From a candidate division LCP-89 bacterium B3_LCP (GTDB lineage Bacteria; Electryoneota; B3-LCP): a stretch of 64,000 bases of DNA. The notes under the pieces are model-generated. The model saw only the letters and a list, made by a program, of their open reading frames with translations. It was not told where the DNA came from and did no database searches. Numbering within the stretch: position 1 is the stretch's first letter; every line of letters begins with the position of its first letter. Made by a program: the position numbers and the translations under genes. Where the stretch lies: NCBI GenBank assembly GCA_005223185.1, contig NJBN01000001.1, positions 441,365 through 505,364 of the forward strand, given 5' to 3'. Of the stretch, positions 31,890-46,012 are shown piece after piece.

Positions 31890-33049
31890 ATGAAAGCTAT
31901 CTTGCTTAGTCTTCTTCTTTTCACATTAACATTAGCCGCTCCCGCCCAACCACCTATCCTCTGGTTCCAAACCTTCGGTGGATCCAATTATGATTACGGT
32001 AAAAGTGTCCAACAGACAGGCGACGGTGGGTATATCATTGGAGGATATACCGAATCCTATGGTGCAGGTTCAAAAGACGTCTATTTAGTCAAAACCCACG
32101 CTTTTGGTATAGAGCAGTGGAGTCAAACCTACGGTGGAAGCTCCGATGATGGTGGCTGGAGTGTTCAGCAGACGAATGACGGAGGATATGTCATAGCGGG
32201 CGAGACCAATTCTTTTGGTGCTGGTGGTAGTGATGTATATTTAATCAAGACAGACGCTTCTGGGATAGAACAATGGAATCAGACCTACGGTGGAAGCGAT
32301 TATGAAGAGGGCTTCAGTGTACAGCAAACCTACGACGGCGGTTATATTGTTACTGGATATACCCTATCATACGGTGTTGATTATGAAGATGTATATTTAG
32401 TCAAGACCAACGCTTCAGGCATACAACAATGGAATCAGACCTACGGTACAACCATATCTGATTATGGTAGAAACGTACAGCAGACCTCCGACGGTGGTTA
32501 TATCATAGCGGGATGGACCTTATCTTATGATAGTGATGTCTATCTAATTAAAACATCTCCCTCTGGTAATTATCAATGGAGTAAGACTTTCGGTGGGGAA
32601 GCGCGTCGGATTGGGGAAACAGTGTTCAGCAGACTTCTGACGGCGGGTATATCGTTGCGGGGTCGACCACTTCCTACGGCGCTGGAGAAACTGACGTTTG
32701 CCTGATCCGCCTGGATGCTGAGGGGACACCTGTAAAAGATCCAGGCTTCATACAGGATATCCCCAACGATTTCGCTTTGTACGAAGCCCACCCCAACCCC
32801 TTCAACCCCACCACAACCATCAACTTCGAGTTACCAGTCGCCAGTTTAGTGGAACTGGATGTGTTCGACATCTCCGGTTCCCGCGTAGGGGTCGCCTGCC
32901 CCTTCGGGGGTCTTGCGCCGACCCGTATCTACACCCCCGGCACCCACCAGATCACCTTCGATGGATCTGGTCTTCCCTCTGGTATCTACATCTACCGCTT
33001 ACAAGCTGGCGAGTTTTCAGCGATAGGTAAGATGGTGCTACTCAAGTAA
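31890..33049 (+). pseudogene. T9SS cargo gene with tandem ~48-aa beta-propeller-like repeats, interrupted by a -1 frameshift near 32598
   Basis: Start ATG 31890 (gagg 5 nt upstream; signal peptide MKAILLSLLLFTLTLAAPAQ). Repeats of YGGSxxDxGxSVQQTxDGGYIIxGxTxSYGAGxxDVYLIKT. Frame 0 derails after TFGG at about 32598 and stops at 32705. Frame 2 continues the repeat (SASDWGNSVQQTSDGGYIVAGSTTSYGAGETDVCLIRL…) into the C-terminal domain ORF 32777-33049. The slip is in a gggg/aa run; a sequencing error is not excluded. Confidence 0.55.
32885..32926 (+). repeat. Palindromic element embedded in frame in the T9SS C-terminal domain coding sequence
   Basis: gtaggggtcgcctgcccc-ttcg-ggggtcttgcgccgaccc: outer gggtcg/cgaccc stem with an inner cccc-UUCG-gggg hairpin; encodes GVACPFGGLAPTR. 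A 60-nt stretch around it is identical to 36391-36450 in the next gene. Confidence 0.65.
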
Positions 33050-33074
33050 TGAACCAGCTTAAAAGTGATTGTAG

Positions 33075-33102
33075 GGGCGGACCTCTGTGTCCGCCCTTTT
33101 TT
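33075..33102 (+). terminator. Rho-independent terminator
   Basis: gggcggac-ctctgt-gtccgccc followed by tttttt. Confidence 0.65.
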
Positions 33103-33163
33103 CTTTCGGAGTCCCTTCTTATGATTACCCCACTGTTTCATTTCCCACAAAAATTTTCTTCGC

Positions 33164-33192
33164 TTGACTAAGCGATTTATTTTTTGTATATT
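33164..33192 (+). promoter_or_regulatory. Sigma-70-like promoter TTGACT-N17-TATATT
   Basis: ttgact 33164-33169, 17-nt spacer, tatatt 33187-33192. The ORF-track start at 33164 lies inside the -35 box. Confidence 0.5.
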
Positions 33193-33226
33193 ATGTCCAC
33201 ACACTTCCATAAGAAAGGATGAGAAA

Positions 33227-36200
33227 ATGAACCGTCTGATGTTATCTATTTACATACTACTGTTCGGGTTTATTTCTGCCGTTCGTGCAGACACCACATT
33301 TGTTGCTTCAGGTCCGGTATCCGGCGCCTGGACTTCAGCCGGCAACCCTTACTTCGTCTATGAAGGTGATATCGTGGTTCCGGACGGCAGAAGCCTGACC
33401 GTTCTGCCCGGTGTTGAGGTGCTGTTCACCGGCAACTACAAACTGACTGTAGAAGGATTGCTGAACGCCGAAGGCACTGAAGCAGATTCGATAACTTTCA
33501 CCAGGGCTTATTCAACCGAAGAATCCAAGTGGCGCGGTTTCCGCTTCGATGCTGCAGATGATGGCTGTACTCTAAAATACTGCCGCATAGAATACGCCAA
33601 AGGCACCGGCCCTTATCCCGATGTGCGCGGTGGAGGGGTGTGGATCGAAAACTGTTCGGTGCTGATAAGGAATTGTACCATAGCGCATAATTACACGCAT
33701 AACGAAAACTACAACGGTTCTGGTGGTGGTATCTTCTTAAATCAGAGTGATCAGAGTATCATCGAATACAACTATATAACCCAAAACCAGGCAGACAATG
33801 GCGGCGGTATATGTGTCGGGCAGAATTGCTACACCATAATCCGGCATAATACTTTCGATAACAACCAAACCTACTCATCCGGGGGAGGTATATACGTCTC
33901 AGCCAACGGAGAATCCGTCATCAATGATAATATATTCGTGGACAATCACTCCAGCGGCATTTACGGCGGAGGAGCTATAAACCTGTGGAGCGCTACCTGG
34001 ATATACGGAACGTTTTCCTATGTGTACAACAACCTGATAATGAACAATACCGCCTCTTCAGCCGGCGGAGGCATCTATCATCGCTACGAATCTTCGATAG
34101 TTTATAATAACACTCTGGTTGGCAATCAGGCCAATCAGGGAGGTGGAATTTACGTTTTGACTTTTTCCGATCTGCCGCCTACTATTTATAATTCCATAAT
34201 TTGGGGAAACAATGCCCCGGTGGGCAGCCAGATTTATCTCGATCCTCAATCGGGGAGCGTCGCCAATATCAGCTATTGCGACGTACATGCCGGATGGCCA
34301 GGTGTGGGAAATATCAATTCCGATCCGGAATTCGTGTCAGGGTCCGGTGGCGATTACTACTTGAGTCAGATCGCTGCAGGACAGCCTGTGCAGAGTCCCT
34401 GTGTGGATGCCAGCGATCCCATTTCAACCATGATAACCGGCACTACCAGAACGGACGGCGTCCAGGATGAGGGTATCGTGGATATGGGGTATCATTATGC
34501 CATCGAAACGGTTGTCAGTATGAACGTGGTTCTGACGCCTTTGAACCCGCCCATCCAGATTCCGGCTATAGGGGGAACTTTCGAATTTGACGTCTTAATC
34601 GAAAATCTGGAGTCATCGCCCGTTCTTTGCGATATCTGGACAGAAGCTATCTTACCCAGTGGACAACCATATCCGCTGATCTTACGGGAAGACGTGAATA
34701 TCCCTGCAGGGGGCAGTATTGAGAGGACGTTATCTCAGAACGTACCCGAGAGCGCCCCAGCAGGATCGTACAGCTACCATGCCTATGTCGGTGATCATCC
34801 GAACATGGTTTACGCAGAGGACAGCTTTACTTTCGAGAAGTTGACCGGTTTAGAAGCCACACGGATATACATGGACGGCGATTTCAGCGATTGGGAATCA
34901 GTTGAGCCACTGCACATCGACCCGGTTGGTGATCAATTGGCCGACAGCCTGGATTTTGGCACCCTCTGGGTGACTAACGATGAACGCTACCTGTTCCTCT
35001 GTCTGGAAGTGGGAGCGGAGATGATGATACAGGTGGAGCATGACTTCGATCTCTACCTGGATACGGATAACGACATCTCCACCGGGCTGTCCATCAACGG
35101 AATAGGTGCTGATCTGGATTATAATTTCAACGATGGAACCGGCAACTTTCTCGCGGGAGGAACTACCTATACTATCTACCATGAAGATCTGGGACTTGCC
35201 ACCGCACCCACCTACTCATCAAATATCTACGAGATCGTAATCGACAGGGAAGCCTATCCAGCGGGTCAATATGAACTGTTCACCAGCGATACCATATCCG
35301 TTCTCTTCCACGATAGCGGTCCCGGGCAGGATTACCTTCCCGATGAGGGGACTACTATCCAGTATGTGTTCGATGATTCCCCCTTACCAACACTACCGGT
35401 TTTATCGCTTCAGAAGCAAGATCCATCGCATATCCGCATCATGTCCTACAATGTCTGGACGGATAACCTCTTTGAACCCGACCTTGAAGATGAGTACACG
35501 CGCATTCTGAATGCCATCGAACCGGACATAATCGCTTTCCAGGAAATCTACAATCACAATGCTTCCCAGACAGTTGACCAGGTGACTTCAATGTTAGGAG
35601 GACAGTGGTACGGCTACAAGATCAATCCCGACATAGTCCTGGTCAGCCGATATGAAATAGCGGAGACATTCAACGTCAACAATGACGGCAACGGAGCATT
35701 CCTCCTCGATCTGCAGCCTGACTACGACTGCCAGATGCTGGTTATAAATGCCCATTTGCCAGCAGGACAATCCAATACTGGCAGGCAGCATGAAGTTGAC
35801 GCCATAATGGAATTCATCCGGGAAGCCAGAGAACCCGGCGGTGAACTGGAGCTGGAAGTGAACACCCCTATCCTGATCACAGGTGATATGAATTTCGTGG
35901 GTTATTATCAGCAGTTGTTTACCATGGTTACAGGTCAGATCTACTACACAGGTACGTATGGACCGCCGTTTGAACCTGACTGGGACGGCACCAATCTTAC
36001 CGATCTGATTCCACGTCATACTGATACTCCCTTCTATTTCACCTGGTATAATGAATCGAGTTACTACTGCCCCGGCCGCCTGGATTTCATGATATACAGC
36101 GATTCCGTGCTGGAAGCCTGGAACAATTTTGTCCTCTTCACGCCGGGAATGTCACCCGATTCCTTAGCTGCCAACGGCCTGCAATGGGATGACGTTGTAA

Positions 36201-36571
36201 ATGCTTCTGACCATTTACCCGTAGTAGGTGATTTTGTACCCAATCCGGGCACAGTCTTGGCGGGAAATTATAACAGCCAGCAACCAGCCCGGTTCGCACT
36301 ATTACAGAACTATCCCAATCCGTTTAATGCATCAACAACAATCAGTTTCCAGTTGCCAGTTTCGAGTCTGGTAGAACTGGATGTCTTTGACATCTCCGGT
36401 TCCCGCGTAGGGGTCGCCTGCCCCTTCGGGGGTCTTGCGCCGACCCGTCAATATTCACCCGGCACCCATCAAATCACTTTCGATGCATCGGGATTAGCAT
36501 CTGGTATATACCTTTACCGACTGCAGGCTGGCGAGTTTTCCGCGATAGGGAAGATGGTGCTGGTGAAGTAA
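33227..36571 (+). CDS. Secreted multidomain protein: parallel beta-helix region + EEP (endonuclease/exonuclease/phosphatase) domain + T9SS C-terminal domain
   Basis: Start ATG 33227 (aagga RBS; signal peptide MNRLMLSIYILLFGFISAVRA). Beta-helix-like repeats (GGGVWIENCSVL, GGGIFLNQSD, GGGICVGQNC, GGGIYVSANG). C-terminal half is paralogous to the 29925 gene with the full EEP motif set (MSYNV, DIIAFQEI, INAHL, TGDMNF, SDHLPV). C-terminal Por_Secre_tail. Confidence 0.7.
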   Translation: MNRLMLSIYILLFGFISAVRADTTFVASGPVSGAWTSAGNPYFVYEGDIVVPDGRSLTVLPGVEVLFTGNYKLTVEGLLNAEGTEADSITFTRAYSTEESKWRGFRFDAADDGCTLKYCRIEYAKGTGPYPDVRGGGVWIENCSVLIRNCTIAHNYTHNENYNGSGGGIFLNQSDQSIIEYNYITQNQADNGGGICVGQNCYTIIRHNTFDNNQTYSSGGGIYVSANGESVINDNIFVDNHSSGIYGGGAINLWSATWIYGTFSYVYNNLIMNNTASSAGGGIYHRYESSIVYNNTLVGNQANQGGGIYVLTFSDLPPTIYNSIIWGNNAPVGSQIYLDPQSGSVANISYCDVHAGWPGVGNINSDPEFVSGSGGDYYLSQIAAGQPVQSPCVDASDPISTMITGTTRTDGVQDEGIVDMGYHYAIETVVSMNVVLTPLNPPIQIPAIGGTFEFDVLIENLESSPVLCDIWTEAILPSGQPYPLILREDVNIPAGGSIERTLSQNVPESAPAGSYSYHAYVGDHPNMVYAEDSFTFEKLTGLEATRIYMDGDFSDWESVEPLHIDPVGDQLADSLDFGTLWVTNDERYLFLCLEVGAEMMIQVEHDFDLYLDTDNDISTGLSINGIGADLDYNFNDGTGNFLAGGTTYTIYHEDLGLATAPTYSSNIYEIVIDREAYPAGQYELFTSDTISVLFHDSGPGQDYLPDEGTTIQYVFDDSPLPTLPVLSLQKQDPSHIRIMSYNVWTDNLFEPDLEDEYTRILNAIEPDIIAFQEIYNHNASQTVDQVTSMLGGQWYGYKINPDIVLVSRYEIAETFNVNNDGNGAFLLDLQPDYDCQMLVINAHLPAGQSNTGRQHEVDAIMEFIREAREPGGELELEVNTPILITGDMNFVGYYQQLFTMVTGQIYYTGTYGPPFEPDWDGTNLTDLIPRHTDTPFYFTWYNESSYYCPGRLDFMIYSDSVLEAWNNFVLFTPGMSPDSLAANGLQWDDVVNASDHLPVVGDFVPNPGTVLAGNYNSQQPARFALLQNYPNPFNASTTISFQLPVSSLVELDVFDISGSRVGVACPFGGLAPTRQYSPGTHQITFDASGLASGIYLYRLQAGEFSAIGKMVLVK
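36407..36446 (+). repeat. Palindromic element embedded in frame in the T9SS C-terminal domain coding sequence
   Basis: Same element as 32885-32926 (gtaggggtcgcctgccccttcgggggtcttgcgccgaccc); encodes GVACPFGGLAPTR. Confidence 0.65.
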
Positions 36572-36580
36572 AAACAAACC

Positions 36581-36618
36581 GTCATTGCGAGGACGGCGCA
36601 GCCGGACGAAGCAATCCC
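36581..36618. repeat. GTCATT-type palindromic repeat (gtcattgcgaggacggcgcagccggacgaagcaatccc)
   Basis: Same family as 6758-6800. Confidence 0.55.
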
Positions 36619-36839
36619 ATAATAATTAATACTATAGGGTGGGGGTGCTTGTCTGCCTCGGGCAGGCTTCTCCCGCCTTTTCTAATTCCGTAGTCGGGGT
36701 CGTCCCTGACCCCGACATGAGGTAGCGCGGGAGCTATATGGGCAGGCCAATCCCTGCGCGAGATATTCACAGGATTTTCCCTTATCAGGGACAATGAGCG
36801 GTTTGGATGCTGCGAAAATTTGCCTTTTTTTTAAAATCC

Positions 36840-36868
36840 TTGACAATATGCTATATTATTTGTATATT
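36840..36868 (+). promoter_or_regulatory. Sigma-70-like promoter TTGACA-N17-TATATT
   Basis: ttgaca 36840-36845, 17-nt spacer, tatatt 36863-36868. Confidence 0.5.
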
Positions 36869-36915
36869 GCACTGTGATCGCAGCAGATTTAAATTCAATT
36901 AATCATGGAGGAGTT

Positions 36916-37734
36916 ATGAGAAATGCTATGCTATTTATAACCGTCCTGATTACTGCAGGTGTAGTGATTTGCTCCGCTGGTACGCAGGGCGTTATAAATC
37001 CCATTCCAACGGTAGTTGACGGCACTACCCAGGGAGATTTCATGGACTGGAATTGTTGGGAGGGTTTCCGACCCATTGATGATCCGACCGACGTGATTGA
37101 TACCTTGTGGTGGACAGGCAATATCGAATACCACATCTTCGGCACTCAGTCCATAAGCTGGGATCCTGATTTACCGGAGATCGGTGGGGTGGTAATGGAG
37201 ATCAAGTACGGTCTATGGAATTCGCCGCAGGTGGGATTGGCAGTTTCGGTTAATGGTAATCCAGTGGGAGTTTGCATGGCCAATTATGGCTATATATCGC
37301 CAGGGCCAAAATACGGGCGAGCACACATTTCCGACTACATCGTAGCGGGGCCTGACCTGATCGAGATCGTAGCTTCCTATGGTGGTGAGGCTGTAATCGG
37401 TTATGTAGCAACCGCAGTTTGGGTTGATGGAGATAATCTTGCTGGTGAGGTTGAAGACACTTTCAAGCCGATGGATTTTGAATTAATAGGTCCTGCTCCT
37501 AACCCCTTCAATCCGACCACGGTGATTGGTTTCCAACTGCCAAATGCCGGGAAAGTCAACCTGGCCATTTACGATATTTCGGGCAGACAGGTCGCCGAAT
37601 TGGTCAACGGCTGGCGCGATGCAGGTATGCATGAAGTAACCTTCGATGCATCTGATTTAGCTTCAGGCATCTACCTTTACCGCTTACAGGCAGGAGAGTT
37701 TTCAGGGGTAGGAAAGATGGTGTTAGTGAAGTGA
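36916..37734 (+). CDS. Small secreted protein of unknown function with T9SS C-terminal domain
   Basis: Start ATG 36916 (ggaggag RBS; signal peptide MRNAMLFITVLITAGVVICSAG). C-terminal Por_Secre_tail (APNPFNPTTVIGFQLP…YLYRLQAGEFS…KMVLVK). Confidence 0.55.
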   Translation: MRNAMLFITVLITAGVVICSAGTQGVINPIPTVVDGTTQGDFMDWNCWEGFRPIDDPTDVIDTLWWTGNIEYHIFGTQSISWDPDLPEIGGVVMEIKYGLWNSPQVGLAVSVNGNPVGVCMANYGYISPGPKYGRAHISDYIVAGPDLIEIVASYGGEAVIGYVATAVWVDGDNLAGEVEDTFKPMDFELIGPAPNPFNPTTVIGFQLPNAGKVNLAIYDISGRQVAELVNGWRDAGMHEVTFDASDLASGIYLYRLQAGEFSGVGKMVLVK

Positions 37735-37784
37735 CGCACTGTGTGCGTCATCCTGAACGTAGTGAAGGATCTCATTTCAATTGT

Positions 37785-37814
37785 AGGGGCAGACCTCTGT
37801 GTCTGCCCTTTTTG
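37785..37814 (+). terminator. Rho-independent terminator
   Basis: gggcagac-ctctgt-gtctgccc followed by ttttt. Confidence 0.6.
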
Positions 37815-37894
37815 TTTGCTCCCTACCGTCATCGCGAGGAATCCGTCAGCCGACGGATGACGAAGCGATCCCAAAGCTCTTCAGATAAATCTCA

Positions 37895-38002
37895 TTTTCA
37901 CTGCTGTCGGGTCTCCGTACCCGACAGATCCCGTAGTCGGGGTCGCCCCTGACCCCGATACCATGCCGTAGGGCGGGGGTGTCCGTAAGGACTCCAATGG
38001 AG
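37895..38002. repeat. 108-bp direct repeat, copy 1 (composite of palindromic modules)
   Basis: ttttcactgctgtcgggtctccgtacccgacagatcccgtagtcggggtcg.ccctgaccccgataccatgccgtagggcgggggtgtccgtaaggactccaatggag; near-identical to 38349-38456. Confidence 0.8.
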
Positions 38003-38348
38003 TAGGCGGGGTGGCATGCTTCTGGATCGCCTAAGGCGAATCGAAGCATGTTTAAATCGTCCAGATATTGACCCCACAGCAGATCTGTGGGGCACCTAAC
38101 AGACGAATTCAAGTTTGTCATTCCGCACTTGATGCGGAATCCAGAATACCCGGAAATATCCGAACGGCTCCTATGGAGAATTCCTGAGCTAACCAATTTC
38201 TGTCCCGTGAAGCGGGACGTAAAGGTTTAAGCATCCCGCTTGAGCGGGATAGCATAAAATTAGCCCGGAAATTCATTTCCGGGTGGTGTAAGGTAATTAA
38301 TCAAAATGTCATTCTGAGCAAGCCGAAGGCGCAGCGAAGAATCTCCTG

Positions 38349-38456
38349 TTTTCACTGCTGTCGGGTCTCCGTACCCGACAGATCCCGTAGTCGGGGTCGT
38401 CCCTGACCCCGATACCATGCCGTAGGGCGGGGGTGTCCGTAAGGACTCCAATGGAG
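38349..38456. repeat. 108-bp direct repeat, copy 2
   Basis: Near-identical to 37895-38002. Confidence 0.8.
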
Positions 38457-38750
38457 CTTCCCCCGCCCTTTATTTATCGTTCCACTGGTACAAATTTGTC
38501 CGCCAATTTGTATTGTCCGCTAATTCTGTCATCGGTATTAAGATTACGGTAGATCGCCTGGATGACTAAAATGTCGTAGTCAGGGGTGGATGGGATAGTT
38601 TTCATGTGCATTATATAGTTGGATTATGAGGGGAGATTGTTGTATTTGAACAAACAATTGAGGTGAGTACTTATATATAATATACAACAATTCATCAGAA
38701 AATGCAAGGAGTTTTGGCAGAAATATGGAGTGGGTGGTGGTTCTTTAAAG

Positions 38751-38915
38751 GTTTCAAATCCCCCTTGGTCCCCCTTTGGAAAAGGGGGAAACTGCGTAAT
38801 TCCCTGCATACCCACTAACACCCCCCTTTCCCAAAGGGGGGAGTCCCAACTTGTTGGGACGGGGGGATTTCGGGACGGGGGGATTTCGGGACGGGGGGAT
38901 TTGGGCGGGGGGATT
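38751..38915. repeat. G/C-tract-rich ~165-bp direct repeat flanking the 3' side of the DUF559 gene
   Basis: ggtttcaaatcccccttggtccccc…ccctgcatacccactaa…cccccctttcccaaaggggggag…, then 3 tandem units of gggacggggggatttc. About 85-90% identical to 39275-39425. Confidence 0.8.
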
Positions 38916-39261
38916 ACAGATGATTCCAAATCACCTGCAGCACCCCCTCAATATTATTCATAACCTCCAGGTTGCTGAATCGCAACACTTGAAATCCTAA
39001 TTCATTCAGATATGAATCTCGTTTACGGTCTTTGATCTTACCCTGAGGGGTAAAATGTTGTTCACCATCTAATTCAATAATTATTTTCGCTTTAGGACAA
39101 TAAAAATCAACAATGTAATTTCCAATTACTCTTTGACGATAAAATTGGGTACGTTTTAGTTGTTTGCGTCGTATTCTGTTCCAGAGCCGTTTCTCTGCTT
39201 CAGTGGCATTATTTCTTAACTCTCTGGCAAGAAGTTTCAATTTGGGATTATAATAGATCAT
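38914..39261 (-). CDS. DUF559-family endonuclease-domain protein (Vsr-like PD-(D/E)xK fold)
   Basis: 115 aa; strong match to the remembered DUF559 pattern (YIVDFYCPKAKIIIELDGEQH…FQVLRFSNLEVMNNIEGVLQVI). Confidence 0.8.
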   Translation of the reverse strand: MIYYNPKLKLLARELRNNATEAEKRLWNRIRRKQLKRTQFYRQRVIGNYIVDFYCPKAKIIIELDGEQHFTPQGKIKDRKRDSYLNELGFQVLRFSNLEVMNNIEGVLQVIWNHL

Positions 39262-39274
39262 GCTTCATTGTTGA

Positions 39275-39425
39275 GGTTTCAAATCCCCCTTGATCCCCCT
39301 TTTCCAAAGGGGGAAACTGCATCTTTCCCTGCATACCCACTAATTCCCCCCTTTCCCAAAGGGGGGAGCCCCGACTTGTCGGGGCGGGGGGATTGGACGG
39401 GGGGATTTTAGACAGGGGGATTAAA
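39275..39425. repeat. G/C-tract-rich ~150-bp direct repeat flanking the 5' side of the DUF559 gene
   Basis: ggtttcaaatcccccttgatccccc…ccctgcatacccactaa…cccccctttcccaaaggggggag…gggcggggggatt…; same orientation as 38751-38915. Confidence 0.8.
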
Positions 39426-39509
39426 ACAGCAACCTAACCCACCCCAGAGGGGTGGGGCACCGGTGCGAGGGCACTCCTTCAGAGCTTCCACCTTCGGCGA
39501 AGGCTTTCG

Positions 39510-40412
39510 TCATTGAGTTGATGTTGGTACATCGGTTCTTTCGAGATCGTCCACATCTGCTTCAATTGTTCTTAACCGGTCATCACGCTGAATTCTCCAC
39601 ATAGCGATGACTAATTCTGAAATCAATATCGTCATGAACATCAATACATAAGCTACCAGACTCCAGTTATCAGATCCGCTCTTACTGGATATACATGCAA
39701 AAACAAATGCAGTAGATGAGAAAAAAAGGATTATTACATGACGCAGCTTATGGGACCGCTTGAGAAAGTAATATTCTAGCTCATCTATGGCACTATTATA
39801 CAGCAGAAGGCGTCGATCGTTTTGGTGTAATAGTAATTCATCATATAGCTGCTGTCTACTCTTCTCTATGGCTGCTAGAATTTCCTTATTAAGATATTGG
39901 TTTGTTAGCAGGCTGACAACGCCATAAATGGAAAAGAATATAGAGTAGAAAAACACATCCCTTGAAGCGAAGAATAGGACACTCAGGAGGACACCCAGCG
40001 AAAGTATCATTGCGGTTTCTCGCAAATCGGATGGCGGCTTGTATCTCCTAGGATCAAGCCACCGCCATAAGATAATTAATTCATGCCTTGTTGCCCACAC
40101 CCATAACCAAACAAGGACTCCTGTTAAGGCAAATAGTGCTACATAACATATAACTAGAATATCCGGCCAGGATTCCTTGATACGGTCGATCTCAGATAGC
40201 AACATTCCTGCTCCGAGCAGAGATGTGATAATACCTATGCCCCAACGCCGCGCAACGATCAGCCCTTCACTCTTTTCCTTAAGATTTGGTTTGTAGTTCA
40301 CGATGGTTCTCAGTTTATATTGATTTATATTCTTTCCTGTCAGGTTTTGATCGCCGAAGGCGGGTGTGACCTGATGGCTTTTATCATGCTGTAACGTCTG
40401 GTCGCGGTTCAA
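39510..40412 (-). CDS. Polytopic membrane protein of unknown function (third gene of the three-gene operon)
   Basis: 300 aa with about 6 hydrophobic helices (e.g. ILVICYVALFALTGVLVWLWVWA, LVAYVLMFMTILISELVIAMW); no recognisable motif. Confidence 0.5.
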   Translation of the reverse strand: MNRDQTLQHDKSHQVTPAFGDQNLTGKNINQYKLRTIVNYKPNLKEKSEGLIVARRWGIGIITSLLGAGMLLSEIDRIKESWPDILVICYVALFALTGVLVWLWVWATRHELIILWRWLDPRRYKPPSDLRETAMILSLGVLLSVLFFASRDVFFYSIFFSIYGVVSLLTNQYLNKEILAAIEKSRQQLYDELLLHQNDRRLLLYNSAIDELEYYFLKRSHKLRHVIILFFSSTAFVFACISSKSGSDNWSLVAYVLMFMTILISELVIAMWRIQRDDRLRTIEADVDDLERTDVPTSTQ

Positions 40413-40462
40413 GCAATACAGAGCCTTGAACTTACGAATAAAAAAATGTAAATATCAGGATT

Positions 40463-41050
40463 TTACTCTTCTGCATTCTTTTTATTGGTACACCGCCCAG
40501 CGTAACATTCCCATCCCCTTTCATTCATCGCTCTTTGGTCACTAATTCTCCTCTCAATAAATTCATTTAAACGACTATGGACATACCAGCTATCTAAATA
40601 GATCTGTGCAAAACAATCTGGATCCTCGGATGGATCACGCCCTTTGTATTTGATACTGCCGGTTTTTTTATGAGCAAATTCATTTCTGAGATTGTTTATG
40701 ACTGGAATATATTCATCTAATTCGGTTGCAACAAATGATTTAAAGCAAGGACGTAGAAGTTTATGCACTTGACTAAATGACATTCGTTTGACAATTCTAT
40801 CTAGTTCCTTTAGGCAACTTTCATGAAGTTCGTCATACCCTTCCATCCATAAAATTAGATCGGAAAGGTGCTCATATAGAATTTCTTTCATCATTGATTC
40901 AATTGATGCGTGAATGTCAAGTACAATAGAACGAACAATGTGATTCATATCTGTTCTATCAGAAGTCCAGGATTTCACTAATGCAAGTACTTCTTCTTTC
41001 GTTGAACAGCCTAATATGTTGATATATTTTCTATGATCGGTCTTAGTCAT
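40463..41050 (-). CDS. Hypothetical protein with a HEPN-like Rx4H motif (second gene of the three-gene operon)
   Basis: 195 aa, helical-looking; motif INNLRNEFAHKK fits the HEPN Rx4-6H signature. Motif-level inference only. Confidence 0.45.
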   Translation of the reverse strand: MTKTDHRKYINILGCSTKEEVLALVKSWTSDRTDMNHIVRSIVLDIHASIESMMKEILYEHLSDLILWMEGYDELHESCLKELDRIVKRMSFSQVHKLLRPCFKSFVATELDEYIPVINNLRNEFAHKKTGSIKYKGRDPSEDPDCFAQIYLDSWYVHSRLNEFIERRISDQRAMNERGWECYAGRCTNKKNAEE

Positions 41051-41149
41051 AGTTTATTAGACTCCCTCCGATACAACATCCATTTCTTCGTCGAGTTTGT
41101 ATGACATAGTTTTAGGTGCTTAACGAACGCTGGTATAAAACGGGTACTT

Positions 41150-41893
41150 TTAAGGACTTGTGGTGCCCGTAGAGGTAACCGTTGTTGTTATACCGTTGGG
41201 ATCGGTCGGATAAGGATAAGTTTGTGGATCATTACCAAGTATTTTTTCAATTTCTTCTTTGAAATGATTTCGTATATTCGCAGTGCTAGAGGGTGGATCA
41301 CAATCCAATATGCTGAACATACTGTGTGACCGTGCGTGTAATGGTTTTCCTGAATGTAGTGTATCTAGTCTTTTGAGAGCTGCATCAATAGAATTCACAG
41401 CTATTAGTTTTGAGTACCAATTGCCTAGTTTAACAGCGTTGTCACTGTTTTCTCTAAAGTAGATTTCTATTGCAGCAGCAATCTCGGATACAAAGTCAGG
41501 CAGATTTAAAAAAACACGATGTCCAGCACCATTTACTTGTTTTCTCAAATGCATAGGTGATTGATCGTGGTGTAAGATAAAACGAAGCTTTACTTGTTGT
41601 GTCGCATTCGACTGTCCATACGTATGAATCAATGAATTTCGTATTCGCCATAGATCATCATCCAGACTACCATACTTTGCATTTAGTTTCTTCATATATT
41701 CAGAAATAAATTTCTTAAAATCATTTCCTGTGTTTCTGTCTTTTGTAGGGTCCAGCCCTAATCCCATATAGTCTATACAGCAAAATGAAAGAATATATGC
41801 GCCCATTAGAGATCTTCCTTCAATTGCCCTTATGATATCAGCCACTGCCGTATCAAAGAAATTAAATTTTAATATGTTATAATCATATGCCAT
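41150..41893 (-). CDS. Hypothetical protein with a HEPN-like Rx4H motif (first gene of the three-gene operon)
   Basis: 247 aa; agggag RBS; motif DLWRIRNSLIHTYG fits Rx4H; C-terminal low-complexity Thr/Pro tail. Motif-level inference only. Confidence 0.45.
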   Translation of the reverse strand: MAYDYNILKFNFFDTAVADIIRAIEGRSLMGAYILSFCCIDYMGLGLDPTKDRNTGNDFKKFISEYMKKLNAKYGSLDDDLWRIRNSLIHTYGQSNATQQVKLRFILHHDQSPMHLRKQVNGAGHRVFLNLPDFVSEIAAAIEIYFRENSDNAVKLGNWYSKLIAVNSIDAALKRLDTLHSGKPLHARSHSMFSILDCDPPSSTANIRNHFKEEIEKILGNDPQTYPYPTDPNGITTTVTSTGTTSP

Positions 41894-41960
41894 TGGAATT
41901 ACTCCCTGATTTAATTTTGGTTTATGCCTGCTTTACGTGATTCTCAATCACTATCCCTAA

Positions 41961-41989
41961 AATATACCCCAATTCATAACACAAGTCAA
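41961..41989 (-). promoter_or_regulatory. Sigma-70-like promoter TTGACT-N17-TATATT for the three-gene operon
   Basis: Minus-strand reading cttgact-tgtgttatgaattgggg-tatatt; about 60 nt upstream of ATG 41893. Confidence 0.5.
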
Positions 41990-42019
41990 GAAGAATATTT
42001 ACCAGATGTGTTTCATTCA

Positions 42020-42048
42020 ATAAAAAAGGCACCCCAGCGGGGCGCCTT
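42020..42048 (-). terminator. Rho-independent terminator (minus strand)
   Basis: Minus-strand hairpin ggcgccccgctggggtgcc followed by ttttttatt; about 450 nt downstream of the P5C dehydrogenase stop and just upstream of the operon promoter. Confidence 0.6.
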
Positions 42049-42156
42049 CTGTCCTCTGTTCTCAATTCCCCCACTTTACCCTTGCATTCCAGGCAATTTT
42101 GTTGTATATTATATATATACTCCAATTATCAAATTTCCATCCTCAATCCTCTCACC

Positions 42157-42191
42157 AACTGCTAACTGCTAACTGCTAACTGCTAACTGCC
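42157..42191. repeat. Tandem heptamer (aactgct/ctaactg) x5
   Basis: Five perfect contiguous 7-bp units in the non-coding region downstream of the P5C dehydrogenase gene. Confidence 0.9.
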
Positions 42192-42487
42192 AAAAACCAT
42201 CTTCTTGACAACGACACATCTGTCACAGGCGACAAATATGACCGACAACCTAAGACGCATGAAAAACAATCACATAACCCCCAAAAACGACAGATATGGC
42301 GCAATTTCAGATTTTGTGCGTGGGAGTCAAAATTTCTGTCGCTTTTGTGCTGAAAGGCAAAGTCACCTTCGTCAAATCTGTCGCCAATCTGAAATGTAAA
42401 ATAATCGGCTTCGCGCCCATAAAATAATCCCTCTGACTCCAGGAGCCGGGGGATTATTCTGTCTTCTGTCTTCTTTATTCTTTTTCC

Positions 42488-44035
42488 CTAAAACTGCTCA
42501 CACACCGCCTTACCCTGAGTGAAGAGCGCTAAATAATCTCTGCCGCCAGCTTTGGAATCGGTGCCGGACATGTTGAAACCACCGAAGGGTTGAACGCCCA
42601 CCAGAGCGCCCGTACACTTGCGGTTCAGGTAGAGGTTGCCTGCATGCAGTTCCCTGCGCCCGACTTCCAAATTGCCGCGGTTACCGCTGTATAAAGCGCC
42701 GGTCAATCCGAATTCAGTGCCGTTTGCGATGGCTATGATATGCTCGAAATCCTTCGCTTTGATGAAAGCCAGAACCGGCCCGAAGATCTCCTCCTGAGCG
42801 ATGCGCGCTTCCTCATCTACGTCCTTGATGATGGTTGGCTGAATGAAATACCCGCCGTCGGGACCCTTGCCTCCACCCAGAACCAGTTCGCCTTCCTTCT
42901 TACCGATTTCGATGTATTCCAAAATCTTGTTGTAGGCAGCTTCATCCACCACGCCGCCCATGAAGTTGTCCTGATCCTTCACTTCACCGATGGTGATGGG
43001 CTTAGCCTTTTCAACCACTTTCGCCACCACTTCATCATAAACCGATTCGTGAACGATGGCACGGGAACAGGCGGAACACTTCTGCCCCTGAAATCCAAAA
43101 GCAGCAGCGACGATCCCCTGTGCCGCCGCATCCAGATCGGCAGATTCATCGACCGCGATGAAGTCCTTACCGCCCATCTCCAGAACGGTGCGCTTGATCC
43201 AGATCTGACCTTCGGATTTCTTGGCAGCACGTTCATGGATGCGCAAACCTACTTCCATAGAGCCGGTAAAGGCGATGAAACGGGTGCGGGGATGATCGAC
43301 TATGGTATCACCGATTTTACTGCCGGGTCCGGGGAGGAAATTCAGCACGCCGTCAGGCAGACCGGCTTCCTTCATGATCAGATAAAACTGGTATCCGATC
43401 GCCGGAGCGGTTGACGCCGGTTTCAGGATTACGGTGTTGCCTGCAACTATGGCAGCCGAAGTCATCCCGCAGAGGATAGCTAAGGGGAAGTTCCAGGGAG
43501 GGATTACGGCGCCCACACCTAAAGGTATGTAATACAGTTCGTTCTCTTCGCCGGGGTAGGGGATAACCGGCTGAGGCTGACCGTAGCGCATCATCTCTCT
43601 GCCGTAGAATTCCAGAAAGTCGATAGCTTCGGCTACGTCGGCGTCCGCTTCTAACCAGTTTTTGCCGACTTCATATATCATCCAGGCGGCTAATTCGCGG
43701 CGGCGGCGCTTCATTATGGCTGCGGCTTTGATCAAATAGCGGGCGCGATCATCGGGAGCAACGCGGCTCCAGAGCTTGAAAGTCTCATCCGCAGTAGCTA
43801 TGGCTTTTTCAGCTTGTTCCTTGCTTCCTTTGGAACAGTTGGCTACGACTTCATCGTACTTGGAGCAGTTCAAAGATACGATCTTATCATCGGTGACGAT
43901 CTCCTTTCCGCCGATGACTAAAGGTATGGTAATTCCTAACTGCTTCTGGACTTTATCCAGCGCAGCTATCATTTCCTGCCGGTTTTCGCTTTTGGAAAAA
44001 TCGGTAAAGGGGGTTGGTACAAATTCGGGGAGCAT
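42488..44035 (-). CDS. L-glutamate gamma-semialdehyde (1-pyrroline-5-carboxylate) dehydrogenase
   Basis: 515 aa aldehyde dehydrogenase with catalytic-Cys region GFQGQKCSACSRAIV and Glu motif LEMGGKD; size and sequence match RocA/PruA-type P5CDH. Confidence 0.85.
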   Translation of the reverse strand: MLPEFVPTPFTDFSKSENRQEMIAALDKVQKQLGITIPLVIGGKEIVTDDKIVSLNCSKYDEVVANCSKGSKEQAEKAIATADETFKLWSRVAPDDRARYLIKAAAIMKRRRRELAAWMIYEVGKNWLEADADVAEAIDFLEFYGREMMRYGQPQPVIPYPGEENELYYIPLGVGAVIPPWNFPLAILCGMTSAAIVAGNTVILKPASTAPAIGYQFYLIMKEAGLPDGVLNFLPGPGSKIGDTIVDHPRTRFIAFTGSMEVGLRIHERAAKKSEGQIWIKRTVLEMGGKDFIAVDESADLDAAAQGIVAAAFGFQGQKCSACSRAIVHESVYDEVVAKVVEKAKPITIGEVKDQDNFMGGVVDEAAYNKILEYIEIGKKEGELVLGGGKGPDGGYFIQPTIIKDVDEEARIAQEEIFGPVLAFIKAKDFEHIIAIANGTEFGLTGALYSGNRGNLEVGRRELHAGNLYLNRKCTGALVGVQPFGGFNMSGTDSKAGGRDYLALFTQGKAVCEQF

Positions 44036-44073
44036 TGTGCCTCCGTTAGGTTATTTTAGTTATATTTATAAGT

Positions 44074-44125
44074 CTGAAAATATAAGCAAAAACCCTTGAA
44101 AATTCAAGGGATTTTAGGGAAAAAG
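44074..44125. repeat. ~50-bp direct repeat, copy 1, with central inverted repeat cccttgaa-aa-ttcaaggg
   Basis: tctgaaaatataagcaaaaacccttgaaaattcaagggattttagggaaaaag; about 85% identical to 45516-45568. The pair brackets the DUF3800-like gene. Confidence 0.75.
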
Positions 44126-44343
44126 AATGTAAAATGTAGAATGGTGAATTTTAAATTAGGAATTTGTAATGGGAGGGAGAATCAGGGACATCTCCAAAGG
44201 TGCAGGCAAGCCGCTGAGGGAGCTTACGCCCTGTCCCGAGCACACACGTTTTTGTTGTAAGCAATATGATTTTGGGATAGATTAAATATTTATTTCATCA
44301 ATAAATCTTCTCAAATAGTCATATTTCTGATTACTAAGAATAT

Positions 44344-45447
44344 CTAGTTGGCGCTTACTCGCAATAGAATGTCTTCGCGAGCCTTCTTCAACCTACTAAG
44401 CATCGGGCCAATCTGACCACTCATTTGCCCCACAAAATCATATAAATCTTGCTCGGAGTCCGGTATTTTATAACCTTTTGGACTACTTGCTATAATCACT
44501 CCTTTATCTCTAAGCTTTGCAATTACCTTTGAGCGCAAGTAATGAGTAGTTACTTTATTCGGGCTAACCTGATTTAGAATTCTCTTTAGCTGTTCAGTAA
44601 ATATGTACCTTTTTGAATTTACATATCTAAAGTGGTAAAGTAAATATTTCAACGCTTCTAGCTGATCTGTTATAACTTCATCTTTAGTGTCCATATTTTC
44701 TTCAATAAAATTTGATGCTTTATAAAGTGCTAGCTCACAGATAAGATTATCAAAATCGTTTCCTTTAGTAATCCATGACTTATTTGTAGAAGGGTGACTT
44801 ATTGGTGGCCATGTGTCAATTAGCAAAGTCCGATTTAATAAAATATTCATAAAATCTTTTGAAACGGTTGTGGATTTTTTGGGATCAAAATGTCTTGCGA
44901 GTGTTCCAGATATAAAGTCAGCAAGTTGAACTATTGGTTGTTCATGACTCGCAACAAATCCGAATTCTGCTCGGATGAATAGATCAGGTACATGATTCTC
45001 GTTTACATATTTTTGAAAGCCTTCCATAAAAGATCTTCCCCCGTATTCATCGGATATTATAAACATTTCGGGGAAGGTACGATATAACTTTCTGTAAAGC
45101 AATCCATGCGTAAACTTAATAAATGGCTCTCTGTAAATTAATCCACTGCTTTCCCATACCTCACGTTTATCAATTATAATAGAATAAAATTTAAAATCTA
45201 ATCCAGCAATATCCTTTAATATCTTTCTCCTTCTTTCATCATTTGAACCAACATTCTTGGACTTCATCTCCCCAGTGCGAAAATGGATTTTTCGTATTTC
45301 ATCTGCATCCCGTTCCAATTCTACTAAATGATCGTGTTCTACTATAATAGCAGTAATAATAAAGCATGTTGACACTCCTCCTTTTGAAACATCCAAGTTA
45401 GGGTCTCCATACGCGTCAACGAATGCATACTGAGGTTCTAAGTTCAT
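44344..45447 (-). CDS. DUF3800-like protein with C-terminal extension
   Basis: 367 aa; N-terminal YAFVDAYGDP and later SHEQPIVQLADFISGTLARHF resemble remembered DUF3800 signatures (DESG-like start, Q.AD..AG…R). Family call from memory only. Confidence 0.5.
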   Translation of the reverse strand: MNLEPQYAFVDAYGDPNLDVSKGGVSTCFIITAIIVEHDHLVELERDADEIRKIHFRTGEMKSKNVGSNDERRRKILKDIAGLDFKFYSIIIDKREVWESSGLIYREPFIKFTHGLLYRKLYRTFPEMFIISDEYGGRSFMEGFQKYVNENHVPDLFIRAEFGFVASHEQPIVQLADFISGTLARHFDPKKSTTVSKDFMNILLNRTLLIDTWPPISHPSTNKSWITKGNDFDNLICELALYKASNFIEENMDTKDEVITDQLEALKYLLYHFRYVNSKRYIFTEQLKRILNQVSPNKVTTHYLRSKVIAKLRDKGVIIASSPKGYKIPDSEQDLYDFVGQMSGQIGPMLSRLKKAREDILLRVSAN

Positions 45448-45515
45448 TTCTTCTTTAAATCCTATTCTTTGTATGGCACAACAATTCGGATCATATTTTA
45501 TATATCTCTAGACGT

Positions 45516-45568
45516 TTTAAAATATAAGCAAAAACCCCTGCAATTTCAAGGGGTTTTGGGGGTAAAGC
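45516..45568. repeat. ~50-bp direct repeat, copy 2
   Basis: ttttaaaatataagcaaaaacccctgcaatttcaaggggttttgggggtaaag; same orientation as 44074-44125. Confidence 0.75.
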
Positions 45569-45645
45569 GTGTTTATAAAGATTATTATACAATCGATCTT
45601 TAGCATTTCATGTTCCCAAAAAGGGAAAATAGTTCTTGACTTCTA

Positions 45646-45674
45646 TTTGGGAACTTCTTATCTTATATATAGTA
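45646..45674 (+). promoter_or_regulatory. Sigma-70-like promoter TTGACT-N17-TATCTT upstream of higB
   Basis: ttgact 45646-45651, 17-nt spacer, tatctt 45669-45674, about 40 nt upstream of ATG 45714. Confidence 0.4.
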
Positions 45675-45998: not shown

Positions 45999-46012
45999 CT
46001 AGAGAGTCAGAT

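Follow-up and report, generated by a model that had tools for sequence, protein, structure and literature searches.

The window, which here means the whole 64-kb stretch of DNA analyzed, contains a small gene of the DUF559 family that lies exactly between two repeats of the same orientation, as had been noticed in a preliminary description of this DNA. The repeats (38749-38869 and 39274-39394) align without gaps over 121 nt and are 89% identical; the stop codon of the gene (38914-38916) is inside the left copy, and 13 nt separate the right copy from the ATG. The full repeat units, denoted U, extend over ~38750-38916 (167 nt) and 39275-39424 (150 nt), and, with the indels of the tandem units included, their alignment has 134 identical columns out of 167; the unit boundaries are the edges of similarity and were set by judgement. 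The locus comprises the following features.

38914-39261, minus strand: ORF of a predicted DUF559 (Vsr-like PD-(D/E)XK) nuclease, 115 aa, assigned by Pfam PF04480
39275-39424, minus strand: upstream (5') repeat unit U, ending 13 nt 5' of the ATG
38750-38916, minus strand: downstream (3') repeat unit U, with its parts in the same order as in the 5' unit and four AAATC6 boxes
39281-39313, minus strand: gene-proximal 'H-g' module, consisting of a hairpin C5T3-loop-A3G5, a 3-nt spacer, and GGGGGATTT
38856-38915, no strand assigned: tandem 16-nt units GGGACGGGGGGATTTC, period 16, 3.9 copies
38770-38788, no strand assigned: hairpin CCCCCTTTGGAAAAGGGGG, with the counterpart CCCCCTTTTCCAAAGGGGG at 39295-39313
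38821-38841, no strand assigned: hairpin CCCCCCTTTCCCAAAGGGGGG, with an identical copy at 39346-39366
38845-38858, no strand assigned: hairpin CCCAACTTGTTGGG, with the counterpart CCCCGACTTGTCGGGG within 39369-39384
38802-38818, no strand assigned: unpaired conserved core CCCTGCATACCCACTAA, also at 39327-39343

The encoded protein is identical to CEE37_01900 of the candidate division LCP-89 bacterium B3_LCP, and a second DUF559 copy in the same genome, CEE37_01595, is 96% identical to it. In a profile search, the 115-aa ORF matched Pfam DUF559 (PF04480) over residues 8-114 (E=5.3e-38; 129.7 bits against a cut-off of 20.6), and Pfam returned DUF559 and related REase families only, with no HUH/Y1 transposase-like match of the REPtron kind. 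The DUF559 family profile also matched PDB entry 3HRL (E=8.8e-27) and, weakly and over the catalytic core only, 3R3P, the structure of I-Bth0305I (E=2e-3); in PADLOC, the match was to 'HEase' (E=1.5e-4). Residues E63, D65, G66, H69, D78, R81, and D82 correspond to invariant columns across 30 DUF559 homologs, and putative catalytic roles of the conserved E-x-D-G-x-x-H ... D ... R-D residues are assigned from homology only; the endonuclease activity of the protein is likewise predicted. The dN/dS values of DUF559 genes, 0.05-0.21, indicate that the protein is under purifying selection. The GC content of the ORF is 35.9%, compared with the mean of 47.2% for the 64-kb window. True Vsr proteins nick DNA at T:G mismatches. 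The Vsr/DUF559 clade includes the homing endonuclease I-Bth0305I (PMC3424549). With 115 aa, the protein offers small space for sequence-specific recognition, which counts against a reading in which it acts on the repeats.

Each repeat unit is a self-closing nested palindrome composed of AAATC5-6 boxes, three C-run/G-run hairpins, and a G5ATTT box. Read in the orientation of the gene, the 5' unit consists of three AATC5-6 boxes, the hairpin CCCCGACAAGTCGGGG, and the hairpin C6T3-GGG-A3G6, followed by a spacer with AGTGGGTATGCAGGG, the hairpin C5T3-GGA-A3G5, and AGGGGGATTTGAAACC; this unit folds on itself, with AAUCCCCC/GGGGGAUU forming the outer stem (z=-3.2). The 3' unit starts within the stop codon (TAATCCCCCC) and folds with z=-2.8. 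Because the repeats are nested palindromes with inverted ends, the flanks of the gene are inverted as well as direct repeats. The inverted C-run and G-run tracts and the tandem units reported earlier are both present: the 64-kb window has four hairpins of the form CCCCCTTT-N-AAAGGGGG, none of them outside these two repeats, against 0 in 100 shuffles, and the 3.9 copies of GGGACGGGGGGATTTC in the left repeat are a series of AAATC6 end boxes as read from the other strand, with three degenerate tandem units at ~39386-39424 in the right repeat. Between the two copies, CCCAACTTGTTGGG and CCCGACTTGTCGGG differ by a compensatory double change (A-T to G-C), and the 3-nt loops of CCCCCTTTGGAAAAGGGGG and CCCCCTTTTCCAAAGGGGG are exactly inverted, with 21 nt being 100% complementary. 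The core CCCTGCATACCCACTAA occurs in the window only at 38802 and 39327; its octamer AGTGGGTA, on the gene strand, is found also at the outer edge of an unrelated DUF559 cassette clade. No further repeat copies were detected in the 64-kb window beyond the two flanks. The plus strand bears four G6 runs at 38861-38915, for which roles as G-quadruplexes or slippage sites had been suggested; neither role is supported, given that the G runs of the hairpins pair with C runs, in pairing that stays Watson-Crick across loci, and that the number of tandem AAATC5/G5ATTT boxes differs between loci and is not conserved.

We compared this layout with that of 82 loci containing DUF559 homologs (52-83% identity) from many phyla. 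In 61 of these, a hairpin and a GGRGGATT box are located no more than 60 nt 5' of the start, and the density of the box is 16.6 per kb in the 50 nt 5' of the start versus 0.05-0.2 per kb beyond 400 nt, that is, a 100- to 300-fold enrichment in a fixed orientation across many phyla. The H-g module of the window is the part that is kept 5' of DUF559 genes across phyla. For the inverted box, AATCCYCC, the density is 8.2 per kb within 50 nt 3' of the stop, and the inverted module (AATCCYCC plus hairpin) commonly lies 3' of the DUF559 stop or overlaps it. On either side of the gene, hairpin density declines monotonically over 3 kb, from 25 to 0.03-0.09 per kb, and values of ~0.03-0.24 per kb are reached by distal hairpins in DUF559 loci. 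One repeat points its G5ATTT end to the start codon, and the stop codon is overlapped or directly adjoined by the AAATC5 end of the next one, so that the gene has inverted ends on its two sides; if the two flanks are complete units, which is the case in the window, it lies between direct repeats as well. In 14 of 76 loci, among them the closest relative scored (L001, 83% identity), the alignment of the 5' and 3' flanks as direct repeats exceeds the 99th percentile of cross-locus controls, and another locus (L215, 76% identity) was judged by inspection to have the U-gene-U layout. Flank variants do not strictly co-vary inside a locus, as illustrated by two loci (L027 and L067) that mix CCTCC and CCCCC types.

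More distant DUF559 genes show an analogous layout with other repeat sequences; such repeat flavors were identified in a cyanobacterium, in Sphingomonas, and at the second DUF559 gene of a Nitrospirota MAG. The association with palindromic repeats is a family-wide property of small DUF559 genes. The proposition that repeat flavor tracks protein clade was rejected, as two genes sharing the CCCCTCCCC flavor are only 39% identical.

The gene and its proximal modules make up a cassette of ~480-600 bp that is found in non-syntenic contexts, including across phyla. The stretch common to the window and the closest relative scored (L001), in which the neighboring gene is pckA, consists of 57 nt upstream and the gene only. 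Likewise, a locus from Nitrospirae (L062) and loci from Thermodesulfobacteriota (L066, L034, L042, and L074) share 83-92% nucleotide identity over the gene and 50-125 nt on each side, and nothing else. In Sphingomonas, the DUF559 gene is inserted between sufB and sufC, and the Nitrospirota MAG has two copies located between ORFs that look, by eye only, like genes of membrane proteins. One locus (L161) is a gene-less derivative: its upstream module matches that of L066 at 51 of 53 positions, and between it and the downstream module lie ATG and 17 nt. Sister genomes yielded no orthologous empty site, junctions of the short-spacer 'empty site' type (G5ATTT no more than 6 nt from AAATC5) are rare (4 in 1.15 Mb), and the ends of both units lack a visible target-site duplication. 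The gene can also be a stable resident, as it occupies a single conserved position in four Smithellaceae genomes, and these syntenic loci, with their synonymous sites saturated, keep the modules. Viral contigs contained only six DUF559 relatives, so phage carriage is not a main route.

The repeats are also dispersed away from the gene. The motif was found on at least 120 metagenome contigs, often at several sites per contig. Among 126 testable strict-motif copies in metagenomes, two were followed by DUF559 and the other 124 were located beside ordinary genes, and 698 kb of motif-bearing contigs contained only three DUF559 genes; thus, the repeats can occur at a distance from the gene, and their movement may depend on another enzyme. 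The dispersed units are 45-170 nt long and have inverted ends of 9-10 bp. On the plasmid pAQ6 of Picosynechococcus PCC 7002, 14 of the 17 modules fall within 10 kb around the DUF559 gene (0.02 expected by chance), and the pAQ6-type repeat unit matches only two plasmid records, both at a DUF559 gene; the window's own repeat has no match in plasmids. An exact-pattern scan of the GTDB genomes for the repeat core gave no match, from which it follows that the source genome is absent from the collection scanned.

This distribution could be explained if the repeats formed a separate MITE/REP-like family, mobilized by a different enzyme of the host or of an IS, that gathers around, or was co-opted by, a solitary Vsr-like repair nuclease gene. 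DUF559 would then play no part in the biology of the repeats, and the flanking pair would result from two insertions or a local duplication. The prevalence of gene-less copies adjoining unrelated housekeeping genes, the MITE-like length and inverted ends of the units, and the stable synteny of the gene in Smithellaceae are all compatible with this scenario, as is the view that DUF559 proteins elsewhere are Vsr-type mismatch nucleases (PMC12907096). We nevertheless regard it as rather unlikely. An independent family would not readily account for the oriented enrichment of the box 5' of the start in many phyla, or for the tight junction at the stop codon, a feature specific to DUF559: an a-box position of -2 to 0 nt relative to the stop was scored in 16 of 82 DUF559 loci versus 4 of 177 dispersed copies beside other ORFs. 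Furthermore, the proximal modules accompany the gene into new contexts, and distant DUF559 genes have an analogous layout built from different repeat sequences. Finally, no recurrent enzyme family other than DUF559, and no transposase or RAYT, was found beside the dispersed copies, with one DDE match among the 126 neighboring ORFs.

A second alternative is that the flanks act solely as cis-regulatory RNA elements in the DUF559 mRNA, that is, a stabilizing hairpin and a G-rich ribosome-binding box at the 5' end and termination or stability hairpins at the 3' end, in which case the similarity of the flanks would reflect shared function or a duplicated regulatory region rather than mobility. In 62 of the 82 loci, a G box resembling GGAGG lies 2-27 nt (after ATT) 5' of the start codon; both units of the window fold stably as RNA, and the retention of the modules in the Smithellaceae loci would fit as well. 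In the window itself, however, the G run of the H-g module ends 23 nt 5' of the ATG, too far to provide a canonical Shine-Dalgarno sequence. The same modules are abundant far from any DUF559 gene, and the flanks are mutually reverse-complementary, which a single-strand signal would not need. The hairpins are near-perfectly Watson-Crick and show no strand asymmetry between G-U and A-C mispairs (6 vs 2 and 3 vs 3), although, with nearly all stems Watson-Crick, this count is uninformative as to an RNA or DNA role. Rfam yielded no matches in the whole window at the gathering score and, in E-value mode over 36.4-39.7 kb, only sub-threshold, chance-level matches to microRNAs and riboswitches over the repeats. 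A scan for consensus promoters and terminators returned nothing relevant, and a -10 box before the hairpin is weakly enriched (6/52 vs 1/52). Taken as the whole explanation, a cis-regulatory role appears improbable.

The locus, with a short ORF that seems poor in promoters and is placed between two directly oriented, similar but imperfect palindromes, also resembles an integron gene cassette, with the repeats as attC-type sites for a site-specific recombinase, and the logic of circle integration would yield U-gene-U. This reading was rejected as highly implausible: the repeat ends, GGTTTCAAATCC... and ...GGGGGATTA, are unlike the attC core sites (R'' RYYYAAC / R' GTTRRRY), only DUF559 is bracketed, so that there is no cassette array in the window, the dispersed copies are beside housekeeping genes rather than in cassette arrays, and no integrase is present among the 14 annotated neighboring ORFs (part of the window is annotated). 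An assembly artefact, that is, a collapsed or falsely duplicated repeat, had been raised in the preliminary description and might be suspected for a MAG, since short-read assembly of repeats is prone to error, but we rejected it as having hardly any likelihood, given that the copies differ by substitutions, at ~11% of positions with the compensatory pair among them, by the exact loop inversion, and by the number of tandem units, and that the same architecture is present in independent JGI, ENA, and GTDB assemblies of relatives and in the finished plasmid pAQ6.

The best explanation, which we put forward tentatively and at somewhat less than even odds, is that the locus is a compact selfish module consisting of a nuclease and its cognate palindromes, REPtron-like in layout but with a PD-(D/E)XK nuclease. 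The recurrence of the gene with palindromes across phyla is more indicative of an undescribed nuclease/repeat module than of a chance event at this locus. The idea of a repeat-borne selfish element or cassette had been raised before; occurrence in unrelated contexts and across phyla, the gene-less derivative, and the 61 of 82 loci with the upstream module agree with it, but the nested palindromes, the gene-free spread of the repeats, and the family-wide association had been missed. In the proposed module, the repeat associated with the gene would read as an AAATC5 box, one or more C5T3-loop-A3G5 hairpins, and a G5ATTT box, with copies flanking the gene on both sides. Action of the nuclease on these repeats is something we infer: the enzyme may recognize and nick or cut the palindromes as hairpins, cruciforms, or duplex, and the breaks would drive recombinational copying of the repeats, locally and elsewhere, as the REP-associated transposase is thought to serve REPs. 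The gene itself would move or be lost through recombination between the flanking repeats: U x U recombination would excise the gene with one U and leave a solo U, whereas the gene would be inserted if a cut repeat were repaired from a U-gene-U template. In many loci, the 5' UTR with its ribosome-binding region is probably also formed by the proximal hairpin and G-rich box, and a 3' end structure by the downstream hairpins.

To our knowledge, DUF559 is a very large family with function essentially unassigned beyond the Vsr analogy, and we know of no established origin for short palindromic intergenic repeats outside the REP/RAYT system. The precise, orientation-specific, cross-phylum link described here offers a hypothesis for both, namely, that the substrate of the nuclease is the palindrome beside its own gene. 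If the nuclease acts on the repeats, this would be a second, mechanistically different REPtron lifestyle, with a PD-(D/E)XK nuclease replacing the HUH transposase, and would explain the thousands of spurious 'PPFxKGG'-type ORFs in environmental genomes. The broader proposition is that small DUF559 proteins are dedicated nucleases of an unrecognized REPtron-like class, in which a Vsr-fold nickase would create, maintain, or mobilize nested-palindrome repeats in many phyla (C5T3/A3G5/G5ATTT, cyanobacterial and proteobacterial flavors, and possibly E. coli box C with YcjD) and the gene would travel as a ~0.5 kb repeat-framed cassette; this is possible but doubtful. No description of the association was found in the literature, which was searched for DUF559 together with repeats or mobile elements, for the motif strings, and for ycjD.

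Among known systems, REPtrons (REP/BIME with TnpA_REP/RAYT, in E. coli, Stenotrophomonas, and Marinomonas) share with the DUF559 loci a single small nuclease-type gene bordered by short palindromic repeats, and repeats that are also dispersed in intergenic DNA beside ordinary genes. A concentration of repeats near the gene, as in some REPtrons (PMC8266576), is seen also on pAQ6 and in the decay with distance in DUF559 loci. The REPtron enzyme, however, is an HUH/Y1 transposase rather than a Vsr-like PD-(D/E)XK nuclease, and the REPtron tag is GTAG/CGTC, whereas here the tags are AAATC5 and G5ATTT on nested perfect palindromes; neither GTAG nor CGTC was found in 52 upstream modules, the pattern being T-C5-6-T3 ... 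G5-6-ATT. In addition, tnpA_REP is described as single-copy and immobile, whereas the DUF559 gene moves between contexts and phyla and is present in at least two copies in this genome.

The repeat units resemble bacterial MITEs, such as the Correia elements of Neisseria, in being non-coding, 45-170 nt long, present in many intergenic copies, and bounded by short terminal inverted repeats (here AAATCCCCC ... GGGGGATTT), and, like MITEs, they could supply hairpins or expression signals to neighboring genes. They differ from MITEs in the lack of a visible target-site duplication and of a parent IS with a recognized transposase, and in having one specific small nuclease gene precisely between units in many phyla. 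With free-standing homing endonuclease genes and I-Bth0305I (Vsr-like EDxHD family, 3R3P), the DUF559 gene shares membership of the small Vsr/DUF559-clade nucleases, a sporadic, non-syntenic distribution over conserved and unrelated sites, insertion between operon genes (sufB/sufC), host-foreign base composition, and a gene-less version of the site (L161). However, the similarity to I-Bth0305I is confined to the catalytic core, and the window protein has no DNA-binding extension; moreover, the DUF559 gene lies outside any intron or intein, and its flanks are complete repeated palindromes, not halves of a unique target. In IS200/IS605, the coding sequence is similarly bordered by subterminal hairpins, which the IS200/IS605 enzyme recognizes as single-stranded DNA, but neither TnpA(Y1) nor TnpB is present here, the hairpin modules are inverted, not direct, relative to the gene, and solo copies are massively represented.

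A related arrangement occurs in E. coli, where the ORF of the DUF559 protein YcjD runs into the C-rich arm of a palindrome and its stop codon falls within the hairpin loop. The repeat differs in sequence, and the upstream module is absent, with an unrelated 16-bp hairpin in its place. The palindromes downstream of ycjD are presumably the box C-like repeats that the older literature places downstream of fabI/envM. The first palindrome is followed by a second one and then by TTA and GGGTGAGGGG, and the element is found in a median of 17 places per E. coli genome.

The DUF559 gene of the window lies between direct repeats of the same orientation, and the preliminary description of this arrangement was right in every particular. 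The ungapped repeats, at 38749-38869 and 39274-39394, extend over 121 nt with 89% identity, contain hairpins and tandem units, and belong to longer nested-palindrome units:

about 38750-38916, read in gene (minus) orientation: full downstream unit
38914-39261, minus strand: DUF559 ORF, 115 aa (Pfam DUF559 match, E=5.3e-38)
about 39275-39424, read in gene (minus) orientation: full upstream unit

The full units are identical in 134 of 167 aligned columns, tandem-unit indels included, and the differences between the two copies argue against an assembly artefact, the concern originally attached to the repeats. In gene orientation, each unit starts with three or four AAATC6 boxes (the previously described GGGACGGGGGGATTTC units read on the opposite strand; period 16, 3.9 copies). 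Next come a hairpin CCC(A/G)ACAAGT(T/C)GGG, in which the two copies differ by a compensatory change, a second hairpin C6T3-GGG-A3G6, a core that is unpaired and contains AGTGGGTATGCAGGG, a hairpin C5T3-loop-A3G5 and, last, AGGGGGATTTGAAACC. The unit closes on itself through its outer boxes, AAATC5 and G5ATTT, which are complementary; folding of both units gave z of about -3. In the downstream unit, TAATCCCCCC begins with the TAA stop codon of the gene, and 13 nt separate the end of the upstream unit from the ATG. All four copies of the C5T3...A3G5 hairpin in the 64 kb lie within the two flanking units, and shuffled sequence contained none. An Rfam search of the window repeats matched no family.

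The stems of the gene-proximal hairpins (38770-38788 and 39295-39313) are identical, and their 3-nt loops are exactly inverted (GGA versus TCC). Loop orientation relative to the G5ATTT box is biased in the 148 metagenome copies among the matches listed (for example, TTTGAAAAA 27, TTTTTCAAA 6), so that one of the two window copies is in a minority 'flipped' state; hairpin-templated switching or nick-and-resolve events could account for the flip.

The protein is identical to CEE37_01900 of candidate division LCP-89 bacterium B3_LCP, and a paralogue, CEE37_01595 (96% identical), is encoded on the same 636-kb contig. The GC content of the ORF is 35.9%, compared to a window average of 47.2%. By sequence comparison, the gene is under constraint and functional: dN/dS was 0.05-0.21 in 13 of the 15 DUF559 pairs tested, the remaining two being saturated at synonymous sites, and the homologues have an invariant core, E-x-D-G-x-x-H...D...RD. 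Among solved structures, the nearest is 3HRL, a DUF559 protein from Neisseria that is uncharacterised; the homing endonuclease I-Bth0305I matches weakly.

The gene-between-repeats layout is a property of the DUF559 gene family, not of the window alone. In a metagenome contig encoding a protein 83% identical to that of the window, the gene, next to pckA, lies between related repeats, and the sequence in common with the window is the gene plus 57 nt upstream, nothing more; a 76% identical relative is likewise enclosed by two units. We further took 80 homologue loci (52-64% identity) from GTDB genomes of Desulfobacterota, Nitrospirota, Planctomycetota (Scalindua, Brocadiaceae), Zixibacteria, Bacteroidota, Ignavibacteriota, Chloroflexota, Elusimicrobiota, Omnitrophota and others, cross-phylum statements resting on MAG taxonomy. 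Upstream, in gene orientation, nearly all loci present T-C5-6-T3-loop-A3-G5-6, 3-5 nt and G5-6-ATT(T), separated from the start codon by a short spacer; the downstream side very often carries (T)AATC5 and, about 5 nt on, a C5T3-loop-A3G5 hairpin. On the gene strand, the last 50 nt ahead of the start contain the G box GGRGGATT at 16.6 per kb, versus 0.05-0.2 per kb beyond 400 nt, and the box is found within 60 nt upstream of the start in 61 of 82 loci; its reverse complement prevails directly after the stop (8.2 per kb), and hairpins thin out gradually in either direction away from the gene. The G box ends 2-27 nt ahead of the start codon in 62 loci; downstream, 16 loci have the AATCCYCC/AAATC5-type box at -2 to 0 nt relative to the stop codon, and in additional loci, the ORF enters the hairpin, with the stop codon in its loop. 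In 14 of 76 loci, the two flanks of the gene align significantly with each other as direct repeats. Changes in one stem arm are matched by compensating changes in the other (CCTCC/GGAGG, CCCTC/GAGGG, TCTCCC/GGGAGA), and G-box run length tracks stem run length. Tandem hairpin and G-box arrays directly upstream of the DUF559 start were seen in a WOR-3 MAG (L027, 2800-3000; five 38-nt units) and in a contig classed as viral (L206, 30-170; three 41-nt units).

All-against-all blastn of the DUF559 loci revealed two situations. Some sets, such as four Smithellaceae genomes, are syntenic on both sides, so the cassette can be a stable resident. In other pairs, the common sequence is the gene with 50-125 nt per side and nothing else; thus, a Nitrospirae MAG (L062) matches Thermodesulfobacteriota loci L034, L042, L066 and L074 over this span at 83-92% nucleotide identity, with sharp edges. 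A metagenome contig (L161) carries a gene-less derivative of the L066-type cassette, which keeps the upstream module (hairpin plus G box) and 5' leader (51 of 53 positions as in the L066 type), the ATG, 17 nt and the downstream module. The DUF559 gene and its proximal modules move together. More distant DUF559 genes lie between sufB and sufC in Sphingomonas (plasmid NZ_CP155753.1, 1108-1593) and, as two paralogues 41% identical within about 2 kb, in a Nitrospirota MAG (L071, 1022-1408 and 3001-3351), between ORFs that by eye resemble membrane-protein genes; each is preceded by a module of another flavour, CCCCTCCCC-loop-GGGGAGGGG-NNN-GGGG(T/A)G.

In Picosynechococcus PCC 7002, pAQ6, a finished plasmid of 124 kb, encodes a 43% identical DUF559 protein, its gene between two units of a cyanobacterial flavour, CCCCTAAATCCCC ... 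C5-N5-G5-NNN-G5. Within 10 kb around this gene lie 14 of the 17 plasmid modules (0.02 expected by chance), and just two plasmid records match the unit, in each case at a DUF559 gene. Modules also occur at 22287-22533 and 23989-24040 inside a DUF1156 ORF (21685-24849) and at 28668-28800 inside a helicase-related ORF (27841-31176), both annotated as intact; these ORFs, in a defence-gene cluster, either have taken up repeats in frame or are pseudogenes not recognised as such. In E. coli K-12 (NC_000913.3, 1351039-1351830), the 3' end of the DUF559 gene ycjD lies within a palindrome rich in C, CCCTCTCCCtga...GAGGGGG. About 40 nt of this end recur as a duplicate some 100 nt downstream, and next comes an element made up of a second palindrome, TTA and GGGTGAGGGG; E. 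coli genomes have this element at a median of 17 places each. The E. coli case, a post hoc observation on one locus, may be the same gene/repeat association in a model organism. A C-terminal 'SPSP' tail is common to DUF559 proteins of three distant lineages, and in E. coli at least, a repeat arm encodes it.

Scanning JGI metagenomes with the strict upstream module gave at least 120 contigs, with 148 occurrences among the matches listed. Among these matches, DUF559 follows the module in two of the 126 occurrences with enough downstream sequence, and 698 kb of module contigs contain three DUF559 genes, each directly downstream of a module. The listed copies comprise closed nested palindromes AAATC5-hairpin-G5ATTT (40), two-hairpin units as in the window (25), hairpins with the G box alone (61) and, rarely, reverse junctions (6). 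The adjoining ORFs are unrelated housekeeping genes; neither a transposase nor a RAYT recurs among the neighbours of the listed matches. Only 4 of 177 listed dispersed copies touch a stop codon, which makes tight stop junctions specific to DUF559.

The reading that fits these facts best is a nuclease gene coupled to palindromic repeats of its own, to which the fixed oriented layout, co-movement, the gene-less derivative, the decay with distance and the abundant solo copies all point. The DUF559 protein would cut the palindromes, and recombination between flanking units would insert or delete the gene, deletion leaving a solo unit, as the preliminary description had guessed. The small selfish nuclease-carrying cassette suggested there agrees with the co-movement and the gene-less derivative; the preponderance of repeat copies without the gene was missed. 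Those many gene-less copies sustain the main rival, an independent MITE-like repeat family beside a solitary Vsr-type repair nuclease (PMC12907096); the precise gene junctions and the co-transfer of gene and modules weigh against it. A purely regulatory RNA role of the flanks may contribute, because many loci have the G box at a distance typical of Shine-Dalgarno sites; it leaves the inverted symmetry and the solo copies unexplained, and 23 nt separate the G run from the ATG in the window. The nearest analogy to an element in which the nuclease gene is tied to its repeats is the REPtron (PMC8266576), from which it differs in enzyme class, the window gene being DUF559, in repeats without the GTAG tag and, compared with tnpA_REP, in a mobile gene with at least two copies in the B3_LCP genome; free-standing homing endonuclease genes are the other close analogy. 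A literature search for a link between DUF559 and flanking repeats found none.

Beside the cassette, a 1.2-kb gene-free stretch and the spacer after the previous gene (36570-38460) are a mosaic of other palindromic repeat families, and a second gene is bracketed by direct repeats:

37895-38002 and 38349-38456: 108-nt repeat unit, 99% identical
36685, 37928 and 38382: 31-nt repeat core
about 36581, 37828 and 6758, with a related one near 38308: GTCATTGCGAGG...CGAAGCAATC-type palindromes
33068 and 37780: terminator-like unit
39510-40412 and 41150-41893: ORFs without family
40463-41050: HEPN RiboL-PSP-like ORF (weak match, below the Pfam cut-off)
44344-45447, minus strand: DUF3800 gene
46013-47542: PADLOC PD-Lambda-2_B homologue (strong, E=9.5e-136)

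A terminator-like hairpin (AAAAACCCTTGAAAATTCAAGGGATTTT) is part of the DUF3800 repeats (44052-44130 and 45494-45572; about 79 nt, 78% identical), which matched neither the Rfam DUF3800 motif nor another family. The low-GC stretch at 39500-47600 (0.34-0.43), also adjacent to the cassette, includes the two ORFs without family, the HEPN RiboL-PSP-like ORF, DUF3800 and the PD-Lambda-2_B homologue, and looks like a variable or defence island. Repeat families D1 (nine sites, 1322-52964) and D2 (five sites, 18421-37738) are ordinary coding repeats, namely, conserved C-terminal T9SS sorting domains (Por_Secre_tail) of many paralogous secreted proteins, two of which contain endonuclease/exonuclease/phosphatase domains.
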